Part shown: one piece after another, positions 959 through 14,207 of the stretch | How positions within the stretch are numbered: the stretch's first letter is position 1 | Layout of the letters: each line of letters starts with the position of its first letter | Origin: a virus | UHGV virus genome: UHGV-0080089 | DNA length: 15,374 nucleotides | Direction: 5' to 3' (one strand) | Translations under genes and position numbers: made by a program | Notes under the pieces: model-generated | The model's input: only the letters and a program-made list of their open reading frames with translations | What the model was told of the DNA's origin: nothing | The model's database searches: none

Positions 959-1756
959 TCAATGAACGGTATCGAGCAGCTTTAACAGCTCAGGGAATCG
1001 GGATTCGAAGAAATGCGGCTGCGTCTCGCGCGGATTTGCAGGACTGGTGATGTTCTTGCCGAACATGCAGCCTTTCGCCGTCAGCGACCAGAATTTTTTG
1101 ATGTTGTTAATCGCGGTACGGCTGTATCGTTCGCGCTGCTCGACGATCCCCAGCTTCACCATCTGGTGATATGCCTGATTAGCTGTCAGGCGGATACCAT
1201 ACTGCTTCAGCAGTGCACTCAGTGACAGCGTGGGGCGGCTTGAGCCATCAGGCGCGTCAGCAGGAGCATCAATGGCATAGCGCGGTGCCAGATTCGGTAA
1301 GCCAACAGCCTCCTGGAGTTTCTGACAGGCACCAAGCACTGAAGAGTTAGACAGGTTTAATTCCCGGCGCATAAAGTCCAGCAGAATCACACCAGCCTGC
1401 ATCTTGTCAGCAGCCTGTCCGGATAATTTTTCCGGTGCGCTGGTTACCATGTCGAAAGTACGGATCACCTTCAGATGGAATGACGGGCTGATCCACATTG
1501 CATAGGCATACACCAGTTCTTTGCAGACATACGTCCCCTGGTTATTTCCGCCACGAATAACGTTAACTGACTCTATATTGACCGAGTTGCAAATCTGCAA
1601 CTCGCTTATTAAACGCTCAGTTTGCTCATTGCGGAGCCAGAATGCAGGCTTATGCTTATCCAGAGAACCAGCAGCCCTGTGCAGATCGTTCAGGCTGTAA
1701 CGCCCATAAGCATCACGACGAACTTCAATACCATCAATGACCATCAGATTATTCAT
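959..1756 (-). CDS. KilA-N domain protein (phage antirepressor-like/Bro-N-like)
   Basis: ORF track 959..1789; chosen start ATG 1756 (MNNLMVIDG...) preceded by strong SD (AGAGGAGAAACGAAGT-ATG). N-terminal region MVIDGIEVRRDAYGRYSLNDLHRAAG...YVCKELVYAYAMWISPSFHLKV fits the KilA-N/APSES pattern from memory. Confidence 0.7.
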   Translation of the reverse strand: MNNLMVIDGIEVRRDAYGRYSLNDLHRAAGSLDKHKPAFWLRNEQTERLISELQICNSVNIESVNVIRGGNNQGTYVCKELVYAYAMWISPSFHLKVIRTFDMVTSAPEKLSGQAADKMQAGVILLDFMRRELNLSNSSVLGACQKLQEAVGLPNLAPRYAIDAPADAPDGSSRPTLSLSALLKQYGIRLTANQAYHQMVKLGIVEQRERYSRTAINNIKKFWSLTAKGCMFGKNITSPANPRETQPHFFESRFPELLKLLDTVH

Positions 1757-1775
1757 ACTTCGTTTCTCCTCTTGA

Positions 1776-2165
1776 TCAGGCGGCTGCACCCGCCGTTTTC
1801 TCGTACTTACTGATAGTGATCTCGACCTTCCCTTCCGGGATAACCGGTCCCCACTCCACCAGCATTCTTTTCACCTGACTGTCGTCTTCCCACACCCCCG
1901 CGTGGGTCAGGGCGTCAAACAGCGCCTTGTTATAGTTGTCCAGATCGCGGATCCTGTTATCCGGAGGAAACAACACGATCTCCACTGAAGCAGGTGCCGA
2001 CGTTGGTTTCGGCAGACGACGTAACTGCTCAACTATTGCTGCGCACGCCGCGCTCTGGAATTTTCGCCCCGCCGCGCTTATCAGGCTCTTACCAGCAAAC
2101 GCCCCTTTGTTGGGGTGTCGCCAGTACGTGTTCACGCTGGGCGGAAAAGGCAGGATCAGCTTCAT
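1776..2165 (-). CDS. rusA: RusA-family Holliday junction resolvase
   Basis: 129 aa; LPFPPSVNTYWRH N-terminus and DNRIRDLDNYNKALFDALTHAGVWEDDSQV core match the RusA pattern (LPWPPSNNRYY...RRDLDN..KA.FDALT.AG.W.DD.QV). ATG 2165 overlaps upstream stop (ATGA). Confidence 0.85.
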   Translation of the reverse strand: MKLILPFPPSVNTYWRHPNKGAFAGKSLISAAGRKFQSAACAAIVEQLRRLPKPTSAPASVEIVLFPPDNRIRDLDNYNKALFDALTHAGVWEDDSQVKRMLVEWGPVIPEGKVEITISKYEKTAGAAA

Positions 2166-2488
2166 ACTTTCAGGCCCCTCTCATGTAACCAGTGGGTTGC
2201 ACGCAGCCTTGCGTTTTCCTCACCGGCAAGCAGTGAGCGGATAATCCCGACCGCCTCGCTGTCGTCGTCCTTCACCGCGGTATGAAGCGTGATGCCCCGG
2301 GCCACGCCACGCTTTATCGTGATGACGCCTTTTTTCTCCAGTGCGCGAAGATGCTCCACCGCTGCATTCACTGAACGGTATCCCAGCATGGTTGCCACCT
2401 CCTGATTGGTTGGCGGGAAGCCACGTTCTTTCTGATAAGAAATCAGCATATCCAGCACCTGCTGCTGGCATTGAGTTAACGTCGTCAT
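2162..2488 (-). CDS. LexA N-terminal DNA-binding-domain protein (winged helix only, no S24 peptidase domain)
   Basis: 108 aa; LTQCQQQVLDMLISYQKERGFPPTNQEVATMLGYRSVNAAVEHLRALEKKGVI closely parallels the LexA N-terminus ([53 protein letters not shown]); no Ala-Gly/Ser/Lys protease module follows. ATG 2488; stop overlaps rusA start. Confidence 0.7.
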   Translation of the reverse strand: MTTLTQCQQQVLDMLISYQKERGFPPTNQEVATMLGYRSVNAAVEHLRALEKKGVITIKRGVARGITLHTAVKDDDSEAVGIIRSLLAGEENARLRATHWLHERGLKV

Positions 2489-3138
2489 GCCGCCATCTCC
2501 CTGACCAGTTTTTCTGCCTGCTGGCGAACCTGCGCCAGAAAGGCCTCACCACATGCCTCAAGTTCATCGCGCCCGATGTAGCTGATTGCCGGTCCCTTCC
2601 AGGTCTTGTCGAAAACAGCAATAGCACCAGCGAAGAAAGCGCCTGTCGGCACCTGCTTCTCATCCTTCGGGATAAACCAGGCAGGCAGTTCAAAACCAAT
2701 ACGCCCGCGAATAAAAGCAATATGATCTGCATCTTCCGGCCACCACACTTCGCTGGTGGCAGCTTTGATCAGGAAAACATAGCGCCCGCCTTTATCACGC
2801 ATGGCACTGGCATGCTTCATGATGTAACGCATGCCGGTGATGTATTGCCCCTCATGCTGACTGGCGCGGCTGTATGGGGGATTACCAAAGGCAGCACCTT
2901 TAAGCTCCGCAAGGCGTTCTGACCAGTCATGCGCCAACGCGTTGTCTTCCGCCGTGTAATACGCAGCACATTTGGCGTTATCACCGTCAGTAAACAGATC
3001 CAGAACAAACGGGCCAAACAGAGTGTTAATTCCCCAGAAAATGTTGTCCGGCGTGCGCCACTGATCGCCCACTTCCTTCAGTTCATGGGCTGGTTTGTTC
3101 CGCAGTTCCGCCAGCGCCTGGCAATATTTATTACTCAT
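2485..3138 (-). CDS. Phage N6-adenine DNA methyltransferase (Dam-like, phage_N6A_met type)
   Basis: Catalytic FGNPPY motif and N-terminal WRTPDNIF...NAKC..YYTAED pattern. Start taken as ATG 3138 (MSNKYCQ...), overlapping the upstream TAA (TAATG); the track's longer 3171 start is GTG and overlaps the upstream gene by 33 nt. Confidence 0.8.
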   Translation of the reverse strand: MSNKYCQALAELRNKPAHELKEVGDQWRTPDNIFWGINTLFGPFVLDLFTDGDNAKCAAYYTAEDNALAHDWSERLAELKGAAFGNPPYSRASQHEGQYITGMRYIMKHASAMRDKGGRYVFLIKAATSEVWWPEDADHIAFIRGRIGFELPAWFIPKDEKQVPTGAFFAGAIAVFDKTWKGPAISYIGRDELEACGEAFLAQVRQQAEKLVREMAA

Positions 3139-3628: not shown

Positions 3629-4570
3629 TCACCCCCTGAATCCTGCCGGGATCTGGCTGTAGTCCACATTGTCGTAACTGGCTTTGAAGTACGGGTCTTC
3701 GCGTTTTTCTGTGTACGTGCTGACGGACGGCGATAAGCGCAGGGAAAGCTCATCCCATTTTTCCCGCAGCTTCGACGGGCTGAGCACGTTACGGCACCAG
3801 AACGGATCGCGGCTGACGCGGCTGTACATCTCGCAGATTTGTTTGTGAGTACGACCATCCTGCACACACATCAGGCGAATTTCGTTTGCCCAGGCTGTCC
3901 AGTTCGGTTCTTTGGGACGAACCACCTCGCCGTCACATTCGGCAGCCTGCTCGTACAGGGCGATGATTTTTTTCCAGAGCCACTGTGCGCAGGTCAAATC
4001 ATCCTGCGTCCCCCACTGGCGCTTTTTAGGGCTGAATACAACCGCATCAGGATGGCGAGTTAAAAAATCCTGTTCAGCCGTCTGCGTGTCCGGTTGCGAA
4101 GCGTCCGGACGAGAAGGTTTTTTATCTGACGGATCATGTTTTGATTTTACTGACGGATCCCCGCCAGATTCTGACGGGTGAAAACCCGCTTTTTTGCCAG
4201 ATTTCGACGCATCAAATTTTGACGGGTCAGATTTTGATGCGTCAGATTTTGACGGGTCAGAATCTGACAGTTGAGAAAATGCCGCTGCCTGAAGCTTCGC
4301 AACGTTAAGCTGATAAACATTCGACGCATTGCGGTTACCCTGGCGACGCGCCTTACGCGTTAACCAGCCTTCTGCTTCCAGCCGTGCGATAGCCGTTCTG
4401 ACGGTACTCATCCCCGCGCCAATCTGACGGGCAATGGTTTCAATTGATGGCCAGCACACACCTTCGTCATTACTGAAATCAGCCAGGCGGGCCATAATTG
4501 CCACGCTGGATAACTTCATGCCTGATGCAGCGCAACCATCCCATACATAGCCGGTTAATTTAGTGCTCAT
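3629..4570 (-). CDS. Phage replication initiation protein (lambda O-like architecture: N-terminal HTH, internal iteron-encoded linker, C-terminal domain)
   Basis: 313 aa; ATG 4570 with SD AGAGGT; N-terminal wHTH (SVAIMARLADFSNDEGVCWPSIETIARQIGAGMSTVRTAIARLEAEGWL); central peptide repeats SDPSKSDASKSDPSKFDASKS encoded by 15-bp DNA direct repeats. Confidence 0.7.
   Translation of the reverse strand: MSTKLTGYVWDGCAASGMKLSSVAIMARLADFSNDEGVCWPSIETIARQIGAGMSTVRTAIARLEAEGWLTRKARRQGNRNASNVYQLNVAKLQAAAFSQLSDSDPSKSDASKSDPSKFDASKSGKKAGFHPSESGGDPSVKSKHDPSDKKPSRPDASQPDTQTAEQDFLTRHPDAVVFSPKKRQWGTQDDLTCAQWLWKKIIALYEQAAECDGEVVRPKEPNWTAWANEIRLMCVQDGRTHKQICEMYSRVSRDPFWCRNVLSPSKLREKWDELSLRLSPSVSTYTEKREDPYFKASYDNVDYSQIPAGFRG
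4122..4273. repeat. Iteron-like direct repeats (~15-bp units AGATTTTGACGGGTC / AGATTTTGATGCGTC) inside the replication gene; candidate replication origin
   Basis: Four contiguous 15-bp units at 4214..4273 (aaattttgacgggtc, agattttgatgcgtc, agattttgacgggtc, agaatctgacagttg) plus spaced copies at 4165..4180 and 4198..4213 and TGACGG cores at 4127 and 4152. Confidence 0.6.
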
Positions 4571-4918: not shown

Positions 4919-5523
4919 GCGTTAGTTTCTCCACAGTCACGACACGCTACGGCGCCCGGAGCTGCACACTCGCGGGCGTCATTACTTTCTGAAATGCAAA
5001 AAATTTTGTAGACCAGTGCTGCATGCTCCTGCAGCTTCGAAATTGAGAGGTAGAGCTCGTCATTAATTGCTGTCTTCTCATGCGGTTCCACTACACCGTC
5101 TTCGATTGCTGAACGAATCTGTTTTGAATAACTGCCGATCTGTTCAATGACTTCCAGCAGACGCTGGTTAATATCGGCGTTGTCCACATCCTCGACGTCA
5201 GGAAGAGACACAAAGACGCCATTTGCAGACTGCGCCACAGCATCAGCAATGAAGTGAGTTCCACCAGCACGTTGCAAAATCATTGCCCATCCCAGCGGGA
5301 AAATCTGATCGCCATCGGCACGAAGGCGGTTAAATAATGCGTTCTCTGTTACATCCAGCCAGTCAGCAGCTTCAGCGTAACCCCCCGGCAACGCTGCGAT
5401 AGTTTTTCTGACAGCTTTCACGTACCACTCAGGCTGTTTGTCTACTTTCCAGTGATGCTTACCCACGGTTAGCCTCATCGTTCTGTGGTTTCTGTTAATC
5501 GATTTATCCATTAGATTTTTCAT
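4915..5523 (-). CDS. Early regulatory protein in the cII position (possibly YdaT-like); C-terminal Cys cluster
   Basis: Track ORF 4915..5580 begins at GTG; first ATG at 5523 (MKNLMDK...) chosen, alternative ATG 5511 overlaps the cro-like stop. Weak SD for both. C-terminus [13 protein letters not shown]. Family assignment is by position after the YdaS-like gene, not sequence. Confidence 0.55.
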
Positions 5524-5704
5524 AAAGCTCAGGTTTAAATGGCAACCGTCCGCAAGTTCTATATGCAGCTTCTGCTGCACGTCCTTTTGGAATTAACTGG
5601 CCCGGACGGTTTCGCCACTGATAAACGGCTTCAGTTGTTATGCCGAAAAAAGCAGCAACTTTCTCAATACTGCCGAAGTAGCTTTCGATATCGTCAGTTG
5701 TCAT
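5504..5704 (-). CDS. Cro-like / YdaS-family HTH regulator
   Basis: 66 aa; ATG 5704 with strong SD (GGAGGG 6 nt upstream); HTH region VAAFFGITTEAVYQWRNRPGQLIPKGRAAEAAYRTCG; divergent from cI across a 97-bp operator region. Confidence 0.75.
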   Translation of the reverse strand: MTTDDIESYFGSIEKVAAFFGITTEAVYQWRNRPGQLIPKGRAAEAAYRTCGRLPFKPELYEKSNG

Positions 5705-5801
5705 ACGCCCTCCAAACTAAGTTTTATTAGATGCTAATTACAAATCTATCTTTGGTCAATAAAAACTAAGATTACTTAGTAATTAAAGAAATGGTGCTCC
5801 T
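5705..5801. promoter_or_regulatory. Immunity-region divergent promoter/operator region (OR-like)
   Basis: Perfect 16-bp palindrome ACTAAGattaCTTAGT at 5765..5780; related imperfect site ACTAAGttttATTAGa at 5716..5731. Minus-strand promoter candidate for the cro-like gene: -35 TTGACC (5759..5754), 17-bp spacer, -10 TAGCAT (5736..5731). Confidence 0.6.
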
Positions 5802-6428
5802 ATGGAAACGGTTGGTCAGCGTATAAAAGCTCTGAGAAGAGTTACCAGAACGTCCCAGAAAGAATTGGGTAAATTTTGTGGAGTAAGCGACGTTGCTGTG
5901 GGGTACTGGGAGAAAGACATCAATACCCCTGGTGGGGAGGCACTTTCGAAATTAGCGAAGTTCTTCAATACGTCAATAGATTACATTCTTTATGGTGCTG
6001 AGTTTGAAGGCAAACTCGTCACAAACATGCGCAGAGTTCCTGTAATATCGTGGGTTCAGGCTGGGCAGTTTACTGAGTGCAGGGCAGCAGAAGTGTTTAG
6101 TGAAGTGGACAAGTGGGTAGATACATCATTAAAGATTGGTGATAACTCATTTGCATTAGAGGTTAAAGGTGACTCCATGACTAACCCTAATGGCCTCCCA
6201 ACAATACCAGAAGGCGCAACAGTGATTGTAGATCCAGATGCAGAACCTCGTCATGGAAAAATAGTCATCGCTCGACTTGATGGAACAAACGAAGCTACAG
6301 TAAAAAAATTAGTCATCGATGGCCCTCAAAAGTTTTTAGTGCCATTAAATCCTCGGTATCCCAACATCCCTATCAATGGTAATTGCCTTATCATTGGTGT
6401 AGTCAAAGGAGTTCAATACGAACTCTAA
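5802..6428 (+). CDS. cI: CI-type prophage repressor (HTH_XRE + S24 LexA-like peptidase domain)
   Basis: 208 aa; N-terminal HTH (QKELGKFCGVSDVAVGYWEKD); Ala-Gly in VISWVQAGQF; Ser nucleophile in GDSM and Lys in VKKLV with S24 spacing. Confidence 0.9.
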   Translation: METVGQRIKALRRVTRTSQKELGKFCGVSDVAVGYWEKDINTPGGEALSKLAKFFNTSIDYILYGAEFEGKLVTNMRRVPVISWVQAGQFTECRAAEVFSEVDKWVDTSLKIGDNSFALEVKGDSMTNPNGLPTIPEGATVIVDPDAEPRHGKIVIARLDGTNEATVKKLVIDGPQKFLVPLNPRYPNIPINGNCLIIGVVKGVQYEL

Positions 6429-6439
6429 GACCTCTCTTC

Positions 6440-6510
6440 TCTAACTAAGGCACCGAACTAAGAAAAGTTTGGTGTTTTCTCTTGCCATAATAACTAAGTT
6501 AAGTTAGATT
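6440..6510 (+). promoter_or_regulatory. Second operator cluster downstream of cI (OL-like) with candidate plus-strand promoter
   Basis: ACTAAG half-site motifs at 6444..6449, 6457..6462 and 6493..6498; promoter-like -35 TTGCCA (6482..6487), 17-bp spacer, -10 TAGATT (6505..6510). Confidence 0.4.
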
Positions 6511-6675
6511 TTATGTCAAAGATAACGAACAGGCAGGACGCCCACGAAGTAGCCGCCTGGGGCATATGAAGTCCAGGATGATTCGTTAGCAACAAAAAAG
6601 CGCCCTACAGGACGCTTAGCTCTTTAACAATCTGGTCCCCATCAACAAGTAACTGATAACTTGAGGAGATGTGAA

Positions 6676-6882
6676 ATGCACAAAACAGAACCCAAAATCG
6701 TCGCGCCTGGCTACACAGATGAGGAAATTTATGAGTGGATGACAAAGAAGCTGGCAGCTATAAACCAGCTTCGTGAAGTGCTGTCTTATCGACAGGAAAC
6801 AATAGACTCCTTAAAAAAACTGGATCAGGAAATCACGGTTTTATCACAGGATGTTACTTTAGATATTGTGCAGACAAATTAG
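6676..6882 (+). CDS. Hypothetical small protein (68 aa), AT-rich accessory gene downstream of cI
   Basis: ATG 6676 preceded by GAGGAG (6663..6668) at 7-nt spacing; track ORF begins at TTG 6661. No recognisable motif and not arginine-rich; 3' end overlaps the convergent 144-aa gene by 29 bp. Confidence 0.55.
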   Translation: MHKTEPKIVAPGYTDEEIYEWMTKKLAAINQLREVLSYRQETIDSLKKLDQEITVLSQDVTLDIVQTN

Positions 6883-7288
6883 GATCCCATTCATTTTCGT
6901 CAAAATCATCAAAGTGATGAATTTGTGATCTCCAGTCTCGATAATCTAAAAATTTCTGGGCGGTTACGCTTATTTTATCAAGTGTGAGTTCATCCTGAAT
7001 TGAAAGAAGAAGTTCATCAAATTTCATCTCATTAATCTGTTTTGGCATCCAGTGATGCTTCATCAGAATAAGGTGAACCAGAGCCTTTTTCCCATTCAAC
7101 TGATTATAGGGAGTGCCGAATTTCTTCCGGTGCTCATGTAAGACAAGGTCCAAAAGAGTAAGTAATGTTGCCCTTGATTCAACTTTGCTTATTTCGACTG
7201 ATGACACTACCCCACTGATTTCAATGCCCCGATACTTTCCAACATTTTCACAGTGGGATTTGTACAGCGTATAGATATTACCGGACAT
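6854..7288 (-). CDS. Hypothetical protein (144 aa), AT-rich accessory gene convergent with the 68-aa gene
   Basis: ATG 7288 with AAAGGAAAAGAA upstream; about 35% GC versus about 52% in flanking phage genes; acidic C-terminus (HHFDDFDENEWDP); no family recognised. Confidence 0.6.
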   Translation of the reverse strand: MSGNIYTLYKSHCENVGKYRGIEISGVVSSVEISKVESRATLLTLLDLVLHEHRKKFGTPYNQLNGKKALVHLILMKHHWMPKQINEMKFDELLLSIQDELTLDKISVTAQKFLDYRDWRSQIHHFDDFDENEWDPNLSAQYLK

Positions 7289-7303
7289 TTCTTTTCCTTT
7301 TGC

Positions 7304-7352
7304 GTTGTTGGGGATAACCAGATTAACCGAATCCTTGTTGTTGGGGAATAAC
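7304..7352. repeat. Tandem imperfect direct repeat (GTTGTTGGGGATAAC at 7304..7318 and GTTGTTGGGGAATAAC at 7337..7352, ~33-bp period) just upstream of the 144-aa gene
   Basis: Read directly from the sequence; on the minus strand each copy ends in an AAGGA-like element, the second forming the RBS of the 144-aa gene. Confidence 0.5.
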
Positions 7353-7574
7353 TAGGTCCACCTCGCCTGATGTGGCTAAAAGCAGGCACATAACAGCTAA
7401 GTATTTTCAACCAGAGAGAATCCTTAGCGTTGTGGTGAATGCGGCTCAGCGCACGCGGGTTAAGGTTGAGGCTGACAGTCGACCTTCTGTGGATACCCAC
7501 CCGCCTGGTGTGCAACCTTCGCCAGGCACCGGGAGGCACCCGGCACCACAACTTTATGCTGTGTGTAGTCTTGG

Positions 7575-7619
7575 CGGTACCAGCTTGTACCCTTGCTTCC
7601 GGCTGGTACCGTCCTTTTT
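7575..7619 (+). terminator. Candidate intrinsic terminator / attenuator hairpin upstream of the yfdP-like operon
   Basis: 10-bp perfect stem CGGTACCAGC (7575..7584) / GCTGGTACCG (7602..7611), 17-nt loop, then TCC + TTTTT (7615..7619). The loop is long for a canonical terminator. Confidence 0.4.
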
Positions 7620-7756
7620 ACAAAACAGAGAAGAGCATCACCGGACGACGGGCTCATAACCCAATCCATCCGGGCGGCAGTCACCGCAGGTGTTCTTCTC
7701 TGTTTTGTGGAGAAACTAACCGACCTTGCAGGGTCGATATGATGAGGAGCAGCAAA

Positions 7757-10331: not shown

Positions 10332-10681
10332 TGGAGCCATACAGCCTCACACTCGATGAGGCCTGTCATTTTCTCAAGATATCCAGACCGACTGCCATTA
10401 ACTGGATACGCACAGGGCGTCTTCAGGCAACACGCAAAGATCCCACTAAGAATAAATCTCCTTACCTCACAACACGACAAGCCTGCATTGCGGCTCTTCA
10501 GTCTCCGCTGCATACTGTCCAGGTGAGCGCGGGTGATGGCATAACAGAGGAAAGAAAATGTCACTCTTCCGCAGAGGTGAAATATGGTACGCCAGTTTCA
10601 CATTGCCGAACGGTAAAAGATTTAAACAGTCTCTTGGAACAAAGGACAAAAGGCAGGCGACAGAACTCCATGACAAGCTAA
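10331..10681 (+). CDS. xis: Excisionase-like HTH protein (Xis/AlpA type, 117 aa); 3' end overlaps int by 124 nt
   Basis: ATG 10331 (TAATG overlap with upstream stop), SD GAGGTG; [29 protein letters not shown]; lies directly upstream of int. C-terminal extent uncertain. Confidence 0.6.
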
Positions 10682-11721
10682 AGGCTGAAGCATGGCGGGT
10701 CAGCAAACTTGGTGAAATACCTGATATAACGTTCGAGGAAGCGTGTGTCAGGTGGCTTGAAGAGAAAGCACATAAAAAATCACTGGACGATGACAAAAGC
10801 CGGATCGGATTCTGGCTTCAACATTTCGCAGGGATGCAACTAAGAGACATCACTGAATCAAAAATTTATTCAGCGATGCAGAAAATGACAAACCGGCGTC
10901 ATGAGGAAAACTGGAAACTCAGGGCAGAAGCATGCAGAAAAAAAGGGAAACCTGTTCCAGAATACACGCCAAAACCAGCGTCCGTTGCAACGAAGGCTAC
11001 GCATCTTTCATTTATAAAGGCCCTGCTAAGAGCCGCAGAGCGTGAATGGAAAATGCTTGATAAGGCACCAATTATTAAAGTGCCTCAACCGAAGAATAAA
11101 CGTATCCGCTGGCTGGAGCCTCATGAAGCACAAAGGCTGATTGATGAATGTCCGGAGCCATTAAAGTCTGTTGTTGAATTTGCACTGGCAACAGGCTTAA
11201 GACGCTCGAACATCATCAACCTTGAATGGCAACAAATAGACATGCAGCGCCGGGTGGCATGGATAAACCCGGAAGAGAGTAAATCAAACCGCGCAATTGG
11301 CGTTGCGCTGAATGATACTGCATGTCGCGTATTGAAAAAACAAATCGGGAATCATCACCGTTGGGTATTTGTTTACAAGGAAAGCTGTACCAAACCAGAC
11401 GGAACGAAAGCGCCAACGGTCAGGAAGATGCGGTATGACGCAAACACAGCCTGGAAAGCGGCGCTGAGACGAGCAGGTATTGATGATTTCAGATTTCACG
11501 ACTTGAGACACACCTGGGCAAGTTGGCTGGTTCAAGCCGGAGTCCCGTTGTCAGTGTTACAGGAAATGGGAGGCTGGGAGTCTATCGAAATGGTTCGTCG
11601 ATATGCTCACCTCGCACCTAATCACCTTACCGAACACGCACGGCAAATAGACTCGATCCTGAACCCATCGGTCCCAAATTTGTCCCAGTCAAAAAATAAG
11701 GAAGGTACTAATGATGTGTAA
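10558..11721 (+). CDS. int: Tyrosine integrase (P22 Int / KplE1 IntS type, 387 aa)
   Basis: ATG 10558 with SD GAGGAA; N-terminus [34 protein letters not shown] typical of this integrase group; catalytic pattern ...LRRS..., HDLRHTWAS, ...RRYAHL; stop 14 bp from the tRNA-Thr 3' fragment. Confidence 0.9.
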
Positions 11722-11781: not shown

Positions 11782-11946
11782 TAGCGAGACCAGTGATTCA
11801 AGATGTTCACAGCCGTTTCAGCATACAATAAAAAACATATAAAAATCAACAAAATATACATAAATGCAGTATCAAGATGTTTCGCCTTGTTTCTGATGAT
11901 ATCATGTTAAATGTGTACCCCGCTGTGTACCCAAAAGGCTGAAGAT

Positions 11947-13266
11947 ATGACTTTTACTATTACACAAGACAGACAATTGGCTTCATTGACCGTTACTAAA
12001 GAAGAAAAAGAAATCTTATTTGCTGTAAAATCTAAAGCTGGGGGAGGACTCTTTATACGTGTTCGTTATGGTAGCGACAATAAAAGCTGGATTTATCGTT
12101 ATCGAATAGCTCAAAAGCCAGCTAAATTAACACTAGGTAGTTACCCTGCCATGGGATTAGCTCAAGCTCGTAAAGCTCATGCGGATGCAATTGAATTAGT
12201 AAGAAAAGGTATAGATCCTCGTCATATTAGAAAAAATGAAAAACAAAAAAATGAACAAATGATTATTTACTCTGAATTATGGAAAGATTGGATAGAATTC
12301 AGAAAGACAAGTAAACCAATTAGCACCAGAACCCTTGCAGATTATGAAGGGACTTATCACCGCCACCTTGAAAAAGCATTAGGAAACCTTCGCATTGACG
12401 AACTTACCAAAAGCGTTATTTTTGAACATCTCAGTAATGTAAGAAAAACCAGTTCTGAAGCAGTTCGTAAAGGATTAATTATTCTAAATATGACTCTTGA
12501 TCATGCCAACTTACAGGGTATGCTTGAGCATAACCCAGCACGACTGCTCAAACCAGCAATGTTTGGTGCATCGATGAATAAACCTCGCGAGCGATGGCTT
12601 CCTGAGAATGAACTCCGGATGCTATGGAAGGCTTTGGATGATGCTACTGTTGGAGGAGGCTCCATTGCATCTGGTGGCTATGGAGTTTCCTCTAGTGTGG
12701 TATTATCTCATTCTGTCGCAAATGCACTCCGTTTGATTATTTTCACAGGAGTGCGCCGCTCTGAAGCGGCACAAATGCGCTGGGATCAAATTAATGGAGA
12801 GCGTTGGACCATACCAGCCACTAAAAATGGGAAAAGCCATATTGTTACTTTACATCCGTATATGCTTTCTTTAATAAAAACACAACGTGAATTCACTGAA
12901 GGTGCATATGTTTTTGGTTCTACTAGCAAACCTGGCTTTCCCATCACAAATGACGCTCTGACTCGCGCGTTAGAAAGGGTTCGCTCTAAGTATCTAGCTG
13001 AACTTACTCCATTTTCTCCTCATGATCTGCGTAGAAGTGTTGCGACTGGATGCGCTGAATACCTTGATGCTCCAGAGCGCCTAATAGAGTTACTGTTAAA
13101 TCATGTACCCAAAGACCGTTTAATACGAACATATCAAGTCGGACAACAAGCTGAAAAATTAAAAAATTTATTTATAGAATGGGGGAATTTTATTATGAAT
13201 AACGTCATTACTGTGCAGAAGAATGCTCCGGATAATGTTATTCATATAAAATTTGGGAACAGATGA
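11947..13266 (+). CDS. int: P4-family tyrosine integrase (DUF4102-type N-terminal domain), about 38% GC
   Basis: Track ORF 11911..13266; preferred start ATG 11947 (MTFTITQDRQ...) with AAAGG SD; N-terminal arm-binding-like region (GGGLFIRVRYGSDNKSWIYRYR...LGSYPAMGLAQARK); catalytic pattern ...GVRRSEA..., HDLRRSVATG, ...LIRTYQVGQ. Confidence 0.85.
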   Translation: MTFTITQDRQLASLTVTKEEKEILFAVKSKAGGGLFIRVRYGSDNKSWIYRYRIAQKPAKLTLGSYPAMGLAQARKAHADAIELVRKGIDPRHIRKNEKQKNEQMIIYSELWKDWIEFRKTSKPISTRTLADYEGTYHRHLEKALGNLRIDELTKSVIFEHLSNVRKTSSEAVRKGLIILNMTLDHANLQGMLEHNPARLLKPAMFGASMNKPRERWLPENELRMLWKALDDATVGGGSIASGGYGVSSSVVLSHSVANALRLIIFTGVRRSEAAQMRWDQINGERWTIPATKNGKSHIVTLHPYMLSLIKTQREFTEGAYVFGSTSKPGFPITNDALTRALERVRSKYLAELTPFSPHDLRRSVATGCAEYLDAPERLIELLLNHVPKDRLIRTYQVGQQAEKLKNLFIEWGNFIMNNVITVQKNAPDNVIHIKFGNR

Positions 13267-13358: not shown

Positions 13359-14207
13359 TTAGATATTGTATGGGATTATTTCTGGATAATACTTCGCAAT
13401 GATGTCATTTAGCCGATCAATCAGTTCCGGTTTTCTGAACGTGATGTGCGCGGAGCCCTTCTTAAAGTATCTGATGCTGAACATCTCATCTTCATAGCAT
13501 GTTTTACCCTGAACAGACTGGATGTGCTCATCCAAACGAATGATGATGTTTTCCCGGTTGTCGGGAATGGGGTTGCCACTGAAGAGATGCAGCATCCTTT
13601 CCAGGTCGGCAACCCGGTCAGTCTGTTGCCCGGTGATAAGATGAAACCCCCACCGGTCCCACCTCACCAGGTTGTTGACGATAATTTTACTGCCAAATTT
13701 GCAGGGGCAATTGGTTTTGTAATTCCAGCTCAGTCCCCTGAAGACGTTGATCACCCCTCGCTCAAACACCTCATCCTTATTCTGGTGTAGTTGTTCGAAT
13801 GTGCTCAGAATGTTCGCTTCACTGATTTCCGGAAAATTATCGTACTCCAGTGACCGGTACCATGTATCACGGGCCTGTGCATCCATTAAGGAAAGTATCC
13901 CTGAACGTTGCATCAGGTCACGCCAGATTTCGCGGTCAAGGTTCCGGGTGATGGCTTTCATTGCCATTTCCGGTTTCTCCATCAGCCAGCAGCCGCAGCG
14001 AAAATCCTGTTTCATGGCCCAGTCCAGTGCAGTTTTACCTCCGATGCTTTCCGTCAGCACTGAAATTTCAGCCAGTTGCCGGATAAGCATTTCGGCTTGT
14101 TGCAGTGCTGCATACCGTACCGTCACAACGTGTCGGATACTGGTTGAGCCGATAACGTCCGTATGCCCGTTGACCACTTCCGGACGGGAGACTGTGATAT
14201 CAGACAT
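13359..14207 (-). CDS. Hypothetical protein (282 aa), island cargo of unknown function; two CxC motifs (FRCGCW, NCPCKFG)
   Basis: ATG 14207 with AAGGA upstream; no family recognised with confidence; convergent with int2 and directly downstream of the truncated Ag43 fragment. Confidence 0.6.
   Translation of the reverse strand: MSDITVSRPEVVNGHTDVIGSTSIRHVVTVRYAALQQAEMLIRQLAEISVLTESIGGKTALDWAMKQDFRCGCWLMEKPEMAMKAITRNLDREIWRDLMQRSGILSLMDAQARDTWYRSLEYDNFPEISEANILSTFEQLHQNKDEVFERGVINVFRGLSWNYKTNCPCKFGSKIIVNNLVRWDRWGFHLITGQQTDRVADLERMLHLFSGNPIPDNRENIIIRLDEHIQSVQGKTCYEDEMFSIRYFKKGSAHITFRKPELIDRLNDIIAKYYPEIIPYNI

Follow-up and report, generated by a model that had tools for sequence, protein, structure and literature searches.

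The 15,374-nucleotide (nt) stretch of DNA analysed here, from virus genome UHGV-0080089 (hereafter the window), holds an SfIV/CPS-53-type prophage of E. coli. Downstream of its cI repressor gene (5802-6428, plus strand; S24 and helix-turn-helix domains), which is flanked on the other side by cro (5504-5704, minus strand), lie two small convergent genes encoding proteins of the YdfC and ECs1072 families. Comparison of these genes and of their surroundings with those of other prophages establishes the architecture of the pair, a rule for its orientation relative to lytic operons, and its mobility. The protein families themselves had already been named; the pairing, the orientation rule and the shared platform of the slot in which the pair resides are not described in the literature that we found.

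The two convergent genes and their families

The smaller open reading frame (ORF), of 68 amino acids (aa), extends on the plus strand from an ATG at 6676 to a stop at 6882, and the larger one, of 144 aa, on the minus strand from an ATG at 7288 to a stop at 6854; they converge and share 29 bp (6854-6882) at their 3' ends. Coordinates, strands, lengths and overlap are exactly those given in the initial annotation of this DNA, which had proposed an AT-rich two-gene module acting in exclusion, defence or as a toxin-antitoxin (TA) system. Sequence comparison identifies both ORFs as genuine genes under purifying selection, because a strong Shine-Dalgarno sequence (GAGGAG, 6663-6668) lies 7 nt 5' of the start of the 68-aa ORF, because the ratio of nonsynonymous to synonymous substitution rates (dN/dS) against diverged homologues is low (0.05-0.17 for the 68-aa gene and 0.225 for the 144-aa gene, the range for both being 0.05-0.23), and because full-length homologues of both proteins were found at identities as low as 22-40%. 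In the same comparisons with diverged homologues, third codon positions hold an excess of substitutions in both genes. The Shine-Dalgarno sequence of the 144-aa gene, AAGGAAAAG, is located upstream of its start at 7299-7291 on the minus strand.

The GC content of the pair is 0.393, against 0.485 for the prophage early region, so that the AT-richness noted earlier is real; as a mark of these two genes, however, it is less specific than had been supposed, the whole immunity region being AT-rich (cI, 0.431; cro, 0.433). The pair (0.379-0.406) lies only about 4 points below cI and cro (0.43), and the minimum of the region is the 144-aa gene (0.379). Both proteins are predicted to be soluble, with grand average of hydropathy values of -0.47 and -0.50.

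Neither product had been assigned to a family in the initial annotation, a statement that has to be revised: both fall in named but uncharacterised families. The 68-aa protein is, by homology, a member of the YdfC family, known from the early-left operon of the Qin prophage. With full-length homology taken as the family criterion (E. coli YdfC has 72 aa), it aligns with Qin-type YdfC at 40% identity over its full length and without internal gaps, and in a tblastn search its residues 1-66 aligned with ydfC-annotated genes of 19 phage records (E=2e-9). It also matches phrog_1744, and no curated model in Pfam or NCBIfam matches it. The protein is acidic and is modelled by AlphaFold 2 with one long helix (residues 15-67; predicted local distance difference test, pLDDT, 89.9); in common with Qin-type YdfC it has the N-terminal motif EP.I.AP.YTD.E.YEW, followed by the long helix. 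The gene order in Qin-type loci is cI/dicA, ydfA/B, ydfC, dicF, dicB, and YdfC is a promoter-proximal gene of the DicA-repressed dicBF early operon (PMC5069750). The 68-aa ORF holds a YdfC-like operon position, being the first ORF after the predicted left promoter and operator (pL/OL) and co-oriented with them. This homology informs on position and timing and not on mechanism.

The possibility that the 68-aa ORF is a spurious reading frame in the 3' untranslated region (UTR) of the 144-aa gene was also considered, and is ruled out by its dN/dS and its homology to YdfC. A run of seven A residues (A7) lies inside the gene at 6813-6819. Frameshifted database forms of 80, 61 and 55 aa, the E. albertii copy among them, diverge exactly at this run, and about 5% of database contigs combine a frameshifted small gene with an intact large one; such frameshifts could reflect sequencing error, decay or slippage. 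An interpretation of the variant C-termini as mosaic junctions was rejected, as their divergence is due to frameshifting at this run.

The 144-aa protein scores 157.8 bits (cut-off 70) with the NCBIfam model NF033230, "ECs1072 family phage-associated protein", its residues 4-144 aligning with positions 2-142 of the 142 in the model. The identical gene carries the ECs1072-family name in RefSeq, and the protein matches phrog_5286 as well. An exhaustive profile search yielded 71 clusters at 50% identity, nearly all of 143-157 aa, with named members from Escherichia, Shigella, Salmonella, Pectobacterium, Symbiopectobacterium, Lonsdalea and Pantoea. Across 54 members R54, L64, G66, A69, H72 and W134 are conserved, and the AlphaFold model of the 144-aa protein is all-alpha (pLDDT 82.5; predicted template modelling score 0.81). 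Foldseek comparison of this model with BFVD returned nothing at E<=0.001, a profile search of PDB sequences with the family gave no match, and Pfam had no match for the protein and single weak matches for two of the 54 members; in PADLOC-DB 2.0.0 no family was matched by either protein at E up to 1. Profile and structure homology searches, which the initial annotation had proposed as a check, thus led only to families of uncharacterised function and to no fold match. The literature offered nothing on the function of ECs1072, YdfC, SfIV gp36 or phrog_5286. In a microarray study of cultured Sakai, a lysogen, ECs1072 appears as an expressed gene regulated by growth phase and is among those with a significant change (down 2.13-fold at a growth transition; PMC2241611), which is indirect evidence of expression in the lysogen.

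The pL leader and its exchangeable cargo slot

According to promoter and operator predictions, pL/OL immediately follows cI, and the early-left leader beyond pL contains a cargo slot occupied by the pair. The promoter scan detected pL on the plus strand at 6482-6510, with a -35 element TTGCCA (6482-6487) and a -10 element TAGATT (6505-6510) at a spacing of 17, and OL operator-like sites of the type ACTAAG-N4-CTTAGT were located on the plus strand by motif search and as repeats at 6444-6459, 6457-6472 and 6493-6508. Within two mismatches the operator motif occurs only in the right operator, OR (5716-5731 and 5765-5780), and at 6493-6508, where it overlaps pL; the copies at 6444-6459 and 6457-6472 are weaker. 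Homology to prophages of other immunity types begins at 6513-6524, just after pL. The locus L004, with e14-type immunity, shows the same layout, comprising a cI terminator, TTGACA-16-CATAAT and TGTACC operators as in its own OR, and the leader that follows its pL is identical to that of the window.

Because the operators and pL (6444-6510) intervene between cI and the pair, the pair is not at the position of rexAB, with which the initial annotation had compared it. The cI-proximal location described there is indeed a variable accessory slot, with at least five alternative cargos in E. coli prophages, but pL/OL separates it from the repressor gene; likewise the 68-aa gene is co-oriented with cI as stated, but as the first gene of the early-left operon and not, by design, as a co-transcript of cI.

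The leader itself, about 65 nt long (6524-6590, plus strand), is by its conservation a candidate put-like antiterminator RNA. At 81-98% identity it recurs in 54 phage records that span seven genera (Escherichia, Shigella, Salmonella, Klebsiella, Yersinia, Pectobacterium and Pantoea), among them the phages SfII, SfV, ST64B, mEp237, Yersinia YeP1-3, Pectobacterium ZF40 and Pantoea AH07. When the HK022 put type is defined as a two-stemmed RNA, about 70 nt long, directly 3' of pL, the leader matches HK022 putL in position and length, and its sequence similarity is weak (PMC9378689). Rfam gave no match for 6524-6590, its predicted fold was not better than that of shuffled sequence (z=-0.55), and a blastn-short search of the window found no second, putR-like leader copy. 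Directly after the hairpin at 6598-6615, the plus strand reads GCTCTTTAACAA (6619-6630), which is boxA-like by the boxA consensus, and in whose place L004 has CGCTCTTTAACAA. This boxA-like sequence suggests antitermination of the NusB/NusE type along a long leader.

When the window is compared by blastn with E. coli prophages that hold a different cargo, the breakpoints delimit an exchangeable cassette (6636-7303) that contains both genes. Against minus-strand cargos, breakpoints fall at 6635/6644 on the left and at 7304 on the right (replaced segment 6636/6645-7303), and against plus-strand cargos at 6587 and 7358 (replaced segment 6588-7357); minus-strand cargos retain a terminator at 6598-6617 and an element at 7304-7351, whereas plus-strand cargos lose both. 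Among 5,426 complete E. coli genomes, 1,928 match the flanks of the slot and 406 have this cargo, so that about 7% of complete genomes carry this exact cassette. At least four other cargos exist, which encode a 171-aa protein with a coiled coil and a zinc ribbon (L002, 1427-1942, minus strand), a 159-aa protein with two transmembrane segments (L004, 1526-2005, minus strand), a convergent overlapping pair of 91 and 81 aa (L005, 1406-1681, plus strand, and 1599-1844, minus strand; the 81-aa ORF is unannotated), or a ClpX-type zinc-finger protein together with the 91-aa protein (L007, 1292-1779, plus strand). Apart from the ClpX-type zinc-finger protein these cargos have no Pfam assignment, and apart from one chance-level hit they have no PADLOC match.

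Inverted repeats of the TTGTTGGGGA(T/A)AAC type bracket the cassette, once on the left (6629-6649) and twice on the right (7305-7324 and 7334-7347). Exchange of the cassette, or pairing between the 5' and 3' ends of the transcript, could be mediated by these repeats.

Both ends of the slot carry signals that appear to serve minus-strand cargos. At 6598-6617 the minus strand holds an intrinsic terminator for transcripts of minus-strand cargos, in which AAGCGTCC-tgta-GGGCGCTT precedes TTTTTT. Strong in this direction alone, it persists in L009 and L011 with altered loop and stem, and is common to the other minus-strand cargo types and absent from the plus-strand types. Given its position, the transcript of the 144-aa gene is predicted to extend in antisense over all of the 68-aa gene. 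A second, weaker hairpin, at 6747-6772 on the minus strand within the stretch antisense to the 68-aa gene, occurs in the window and L009 only and is possibly a first stop for this transcript. At the other end, comparative alignment revealed a conserved 48-nt element (7351-7304, minus strand) that includes a promoter-like TTCCCC (7348-7343)-17-TAATCT (7325-7320). This element is found directly 5' of the ECs1072-family start codons in the diverged loci L009, L010 and L011, and likewise in front of the unrelated 171-aa and 159-aa cargo genes (types B and C). At the place of its -10 hexamer a perfect TATAAT occurs in L004 and in Sakai (TATAATCTG), and more distant loci have TTCACC-17-TATCTT at the promoter-like element. 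We infer that the 48-nt element is a weak promoter with a 5' UTR. A pL-leader slot equipped with a shared upstream element and a shared terminator is, in addition, a place in which to seek further prophage accessory or defence genes.

Recurrence of the pair and its orientation

Loci were sampled as the surroundings of ECs1072-family members across a range of divergence. The pL leader is the site of the pair in the window (100% identity of the ECs1072-like protein), in E. albertii (L009; 72% identity to the window protein) and in L027 (58%); L011 (52%) is a short metagenome contig in which the neighbours are not known. The founding ECs1072 of the Sakai prophage Sp4, a distant relative, is encoded between cII and O in the pR operon. 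Members with 22-26% identity reside inside the cox-B-A early operon of P2-like Pantoea prophages (L021, L022 and L025), and those of ST64B and Klebsiella phage KPP5665-2, each at about 30% identity, between Q and the holin gene. In all of these loci the ECs1072-like gene converges on a YdfC-like ORF, the two overlapping at their 3' ends, and the partner bears the motif (E/Q)P.(I/F)..(P/G)G.(T/S)D.(E/Q)(I/L).(E/D)W, followed by a long helix. The convergent pair was therefore encountered at four unrelated sites, namely the pL leader, cII-O, the P2-like early operon and Q-holin. The two-gene module of the initial annotation is borne out by these data, the overlapping arrangement being kept at 22-72% identity in four insertion contexts, and the comparisons identify the pair as one evolutionary unit that is mobile between prophages.

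Some of these ORFs had escaped annotation. In ST64B a full-length ECs1072-family ORF (L028, about 2345-2776, plus strand; about 36438-36870 of the record) is unannotated and matches the family profile at E=1e-42; the only gene annotated there is sb50, the YdfC-like partner encoded by the other strand. The partner in Klebsiella phage KPP5665-2 is GP45. The YdfC-like ORF of Sakai Sp4 (L024, 19117-19677, plus strand), also unannotated, lacks an early stop and, with about 170 codons, lies antisense through most of ECs1072.

Pairing is frequent and non-obligatory. No ECs1072-like remnant was found beside Qin-type ydfC or in the other cargo types. That each gene also occurs alone is what one would expect if the two were unrelated neighbours, an ordinary early-left YdfC-like gene beside an independent lysogenic-conversion gene with no functional link. 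The same convergent overlap is present, however, at 22-30% protein identity in four unrelated sites, a recurrence that descent from a single locus cannot explain, and we therefore consider mere neighbourhood unlikely.

The orientation of the two genes is regular. In every paired locus the YdfC-like gene has the direction of the lytic operon and the ECs1072-like gene the opposite one. With partnerless loci included, the ECs1072-like gene lies antisense to the genes around it in each of the 13 contexts with known neighbours (1.2e-4 under a coin-flip null). Head-on arrangements of this kind are familiar from lambda oop, P22 sar and the face-to-face promoters of 186 and P2. Such regularity of antisense placement in lytic operons would suit a mainly transcriptional device, in which a head-on promoter damps leaky or read-through lytic transcription in the lysogen and yields a long RNA complementary to the YdfC-like mRNA, with only a secondary part for the protein. 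The Sakai copy sits between cII and O, exactly in the place of lambda oop; the terminator is so placed that the transcript covers the whole 68-aa gene; and the window has no terminator between cI and pL, all of which would be in keeping with such a device. An RNA-only device would not, however, keep protein conservation, and the 144-aa protein is under purifying selection (dN/dS 0.225) and belongs to a family of proteins of about 145-155 aa conserved across Enterobacterales with invariant residues; other cargos of the slot, moreover, are on the plus strand. We regard a primarily transcriptional role as quite unlikely.

The recurrence of the pair also bears on its reading as a classical TA system, with the 144-aa protein as a growth-arresting toxin and the 68-aa acidic helical protein as its antitoxin, serving prophage stabilisation or an abortive-infection switch irrespective of whether the phage is in lysogeny or in lytic growth. 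The tight and conserved association of a short, acidic, helical protein with a larger one in distant lineages, the mobility of the unit, and a small gene prone to frequent frameshifts through its A7 run would agree with this. The genes are nevertheless convergent and form no bicistronic operon, and neither protein has a known toxin or antitoxin domain in Pfam, PADLOC or PDB profile searches. An unopposed toxin should not persist, yet the 144-aa gene has no detectable partner in four contexts, and in E. albertii, as in the 5% of contigs mentioned above, a frameshifted small gene stands beside an intact large gene. A classical TA system is accordingly very unlikely in our judgement.

Proposed working of the pair and comparison with known systems

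We tentatively favour the reading that the pair is a mobile YdfC/ECs1072 unit with a role in phage-phage conflict, composed of a protein expressed in the lysogen and a partner expressed in the lytic state that would confer self-immunity; on the comparative evidence its chance comes close to even without quite reaching it. In the lysogen, with pL repressed, the ECs1072-like gene would be transcribed from its own weak promoter, and its transcript would run antisense over the whole YdfC-like gene to the terminator at 6598-6617. Upon induction, or upon infection by a phage that carries the unit, transcription of the lytic operon would proceed head-on into the ECs1072-like gene and shut it down, and the firing of this operon would lead to production of the YdfC-like protein. 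The cytoplasmic ECs1072-like protein made by the lysogen would then be an exclusion or abortive-infection effector, and the helical YdfC-like protein made during lytic growth its cognate partner or antidote, through which the prophage would be immune to its own effector. A function in phage-phage conflict seems the simplest account because the putative lysogen protein is cytoplasmic, diverges fast and resides in a swap-prone slot.

Several observations weigh against this reading. A standard promoter scan found no minus-strand promoter 5' of the 144-aa gene, and the promoter-like element in front of it is weak, with 6 of 12 consensus matches. The 68-aa gene may also be read in the lysogen from pRM, the promoter of repressor maintenance, since no obvious terminator is present between cI and pL in the window. 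No YdfC-like partner was detected in L010, L018, L019 and L026, and a weak one in L023; conversely, 19 of the 25 phage records with a YdfC-like gene are without an ECs1072-like gene. Finally, neither protein showed similarity to a known defence, exclusion, toxin or antitoxin protein in Pfam, PADLOC, PDB profile or Foldseek searches.

That the pair constitutes a previously unrecognised defence unit wired by orientation, in which ECs1072 would act as an exclusion or abortive-infection effector only while lytic operons are silent and YdfC, produced by whichever lytic operon hosts the unit, would be its antidote, is distinctly improbable in our estimate. In such a unit, head-on transcription and full-length antisense overlap would make the lysogenic and lytic products mutually exclusive. 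If this were true, the unit would represent a new defence family, the lone ydfC genes of Qin/dicBF-type phages would be orphan anti-defence genes, and K-12 ydfC would acquire its first function.

The family reaches prophages of Shigella, Salmonella, Klebsiella, Pantoea and Pectobacterium, including the well-studied SfIV, ST64B and O157 Sakai Sp4. The orientation rule predicts that one gene is expressed in the lysogen and the other in the lytic state, and that the two act on each other.

Other features of the window lie outside the pair. The conserved right flank of the slot holds, at 7399-7622 on the plus strand, a candidate prophage small RNA of the STnc100/PasD type, detected with Rfam model RF02076 (STnc100) over the full model length at 43.4 bits (E=1e-6), which is below the gathering score of 47. 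The same DNA is called a "frameshifted hypothetical protein" in RefSeq, and a 2026 preprint links STnc100 to PasD. In the O-like replication gene, short tandem repeats at 4141-4330 encode a PSKSDASKSD repeat and are probably iteron-type origin repeats; an Rfam match to mir-5880 at 4195-4269 is at chance level. The prophage further encodes yfdP-yfdT genes and an integrase (10558-11721), after which a second island follows. The segment 11911-15374 looks like a separate island abutting the prophage, with a second, AT-rich integrase gene (11911-13266), a 282-aa ORF without a PADLOC match (13359-14207, minus strand) and the start of an Ag43-like autotransporter gene (14292-15374, minus strand).

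Compared with known systems, the pair is by layout and domains neither a type I nor a type II TA system, and the searches above place it in no known defence family. Type II systems require a co-oriented operon and either a known superfamily or a DNA-binding antitoxin, whereas the genes described here are convergent with a 29-bp overlap, belong to no such superfamily, and include a 68-aa protein that is modelled as a single helix. Type I systems combine a hydrophobic toxin peptide with a non-coding antisense RNA, whereas here both strands code for conserved, soluble proteins.

With rexAB the pair has in common an accessory function near cI and a proposed role in the lysogen. The rexAB genes, however, are located between cI and pL and co-transcribed with cI, whereas the pair lies beyond pL/OL, and no homology to RexA or RexB was found in Pfam or PADLOC. 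The sieB genes of lambda and P22 and nun of HK022 are exclusion genes situated just after pL and co-oriented with it, and are active in the lysogen although the operon is silent. The pair likewise lies just downstream of pL, and the HK022 layout (cI, pL, a leader of about 70 nt, hairpin, first gene) matches that of the window. The 144-aa gene differs from sieB and nun in being antisense to the operon, and its product has neither the membrane segments of SieB nor the arginine-rich motif of Nun; no sequence or fold similarity connects these exclusion proteins with the pair.

The closest relatives by family are those of Qin and Sakai. In Qin (ydfA-ydfB-ydfC-dicF-dicB-ydfD), YdfC, like the 68-aa gene, is encoded promoter-proximally in a repressor-controlled early-left operon; unlike in the window, no ECs1072-family gene faces it. 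ECs1072 of Sakai Sp4 resembles the 144-aa gene in its NF033230 family (E=6e-17 to the profile built here), in lying antisense to a lytic operon and in facing a YdfC-like ORF, and differs in its location between cII and O in the pR operon, in its length (151 aa) and in its distant sequence.

Morons such as lambda bor and lom offer another parallel, being present in some relatives and absent from others, lower in GC than their neighbours and provided with their own terminator, as is the pair, which also has a candidate promoter; bor, like the 144-aa gene, is oriented against the surrounding lytic operon. The pair shows three of the four moron characters (presence/absence, terminator and base composition), its promoter being a candidate only, below the scan threshold. 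It departs from morons in being a convergent two-gene unit of which one member runs with the lytic operon, in the predicted expression of its two members in opposite states, and in having a cytoplasmic rather than a surface product. The nearest counterpart to the proposed working is BstA, a large protein whose own locus contains a DNA element, the anti-BstA element aba (PMC8585504). The pair has no homology to that system and its proposed antidote would be a protein from a convergent gene, but the logic, by analogy, would be the same, a defence protein made by the lysogen and, linked to it, an element by which the lytic cycle of the prophage itself is spared.

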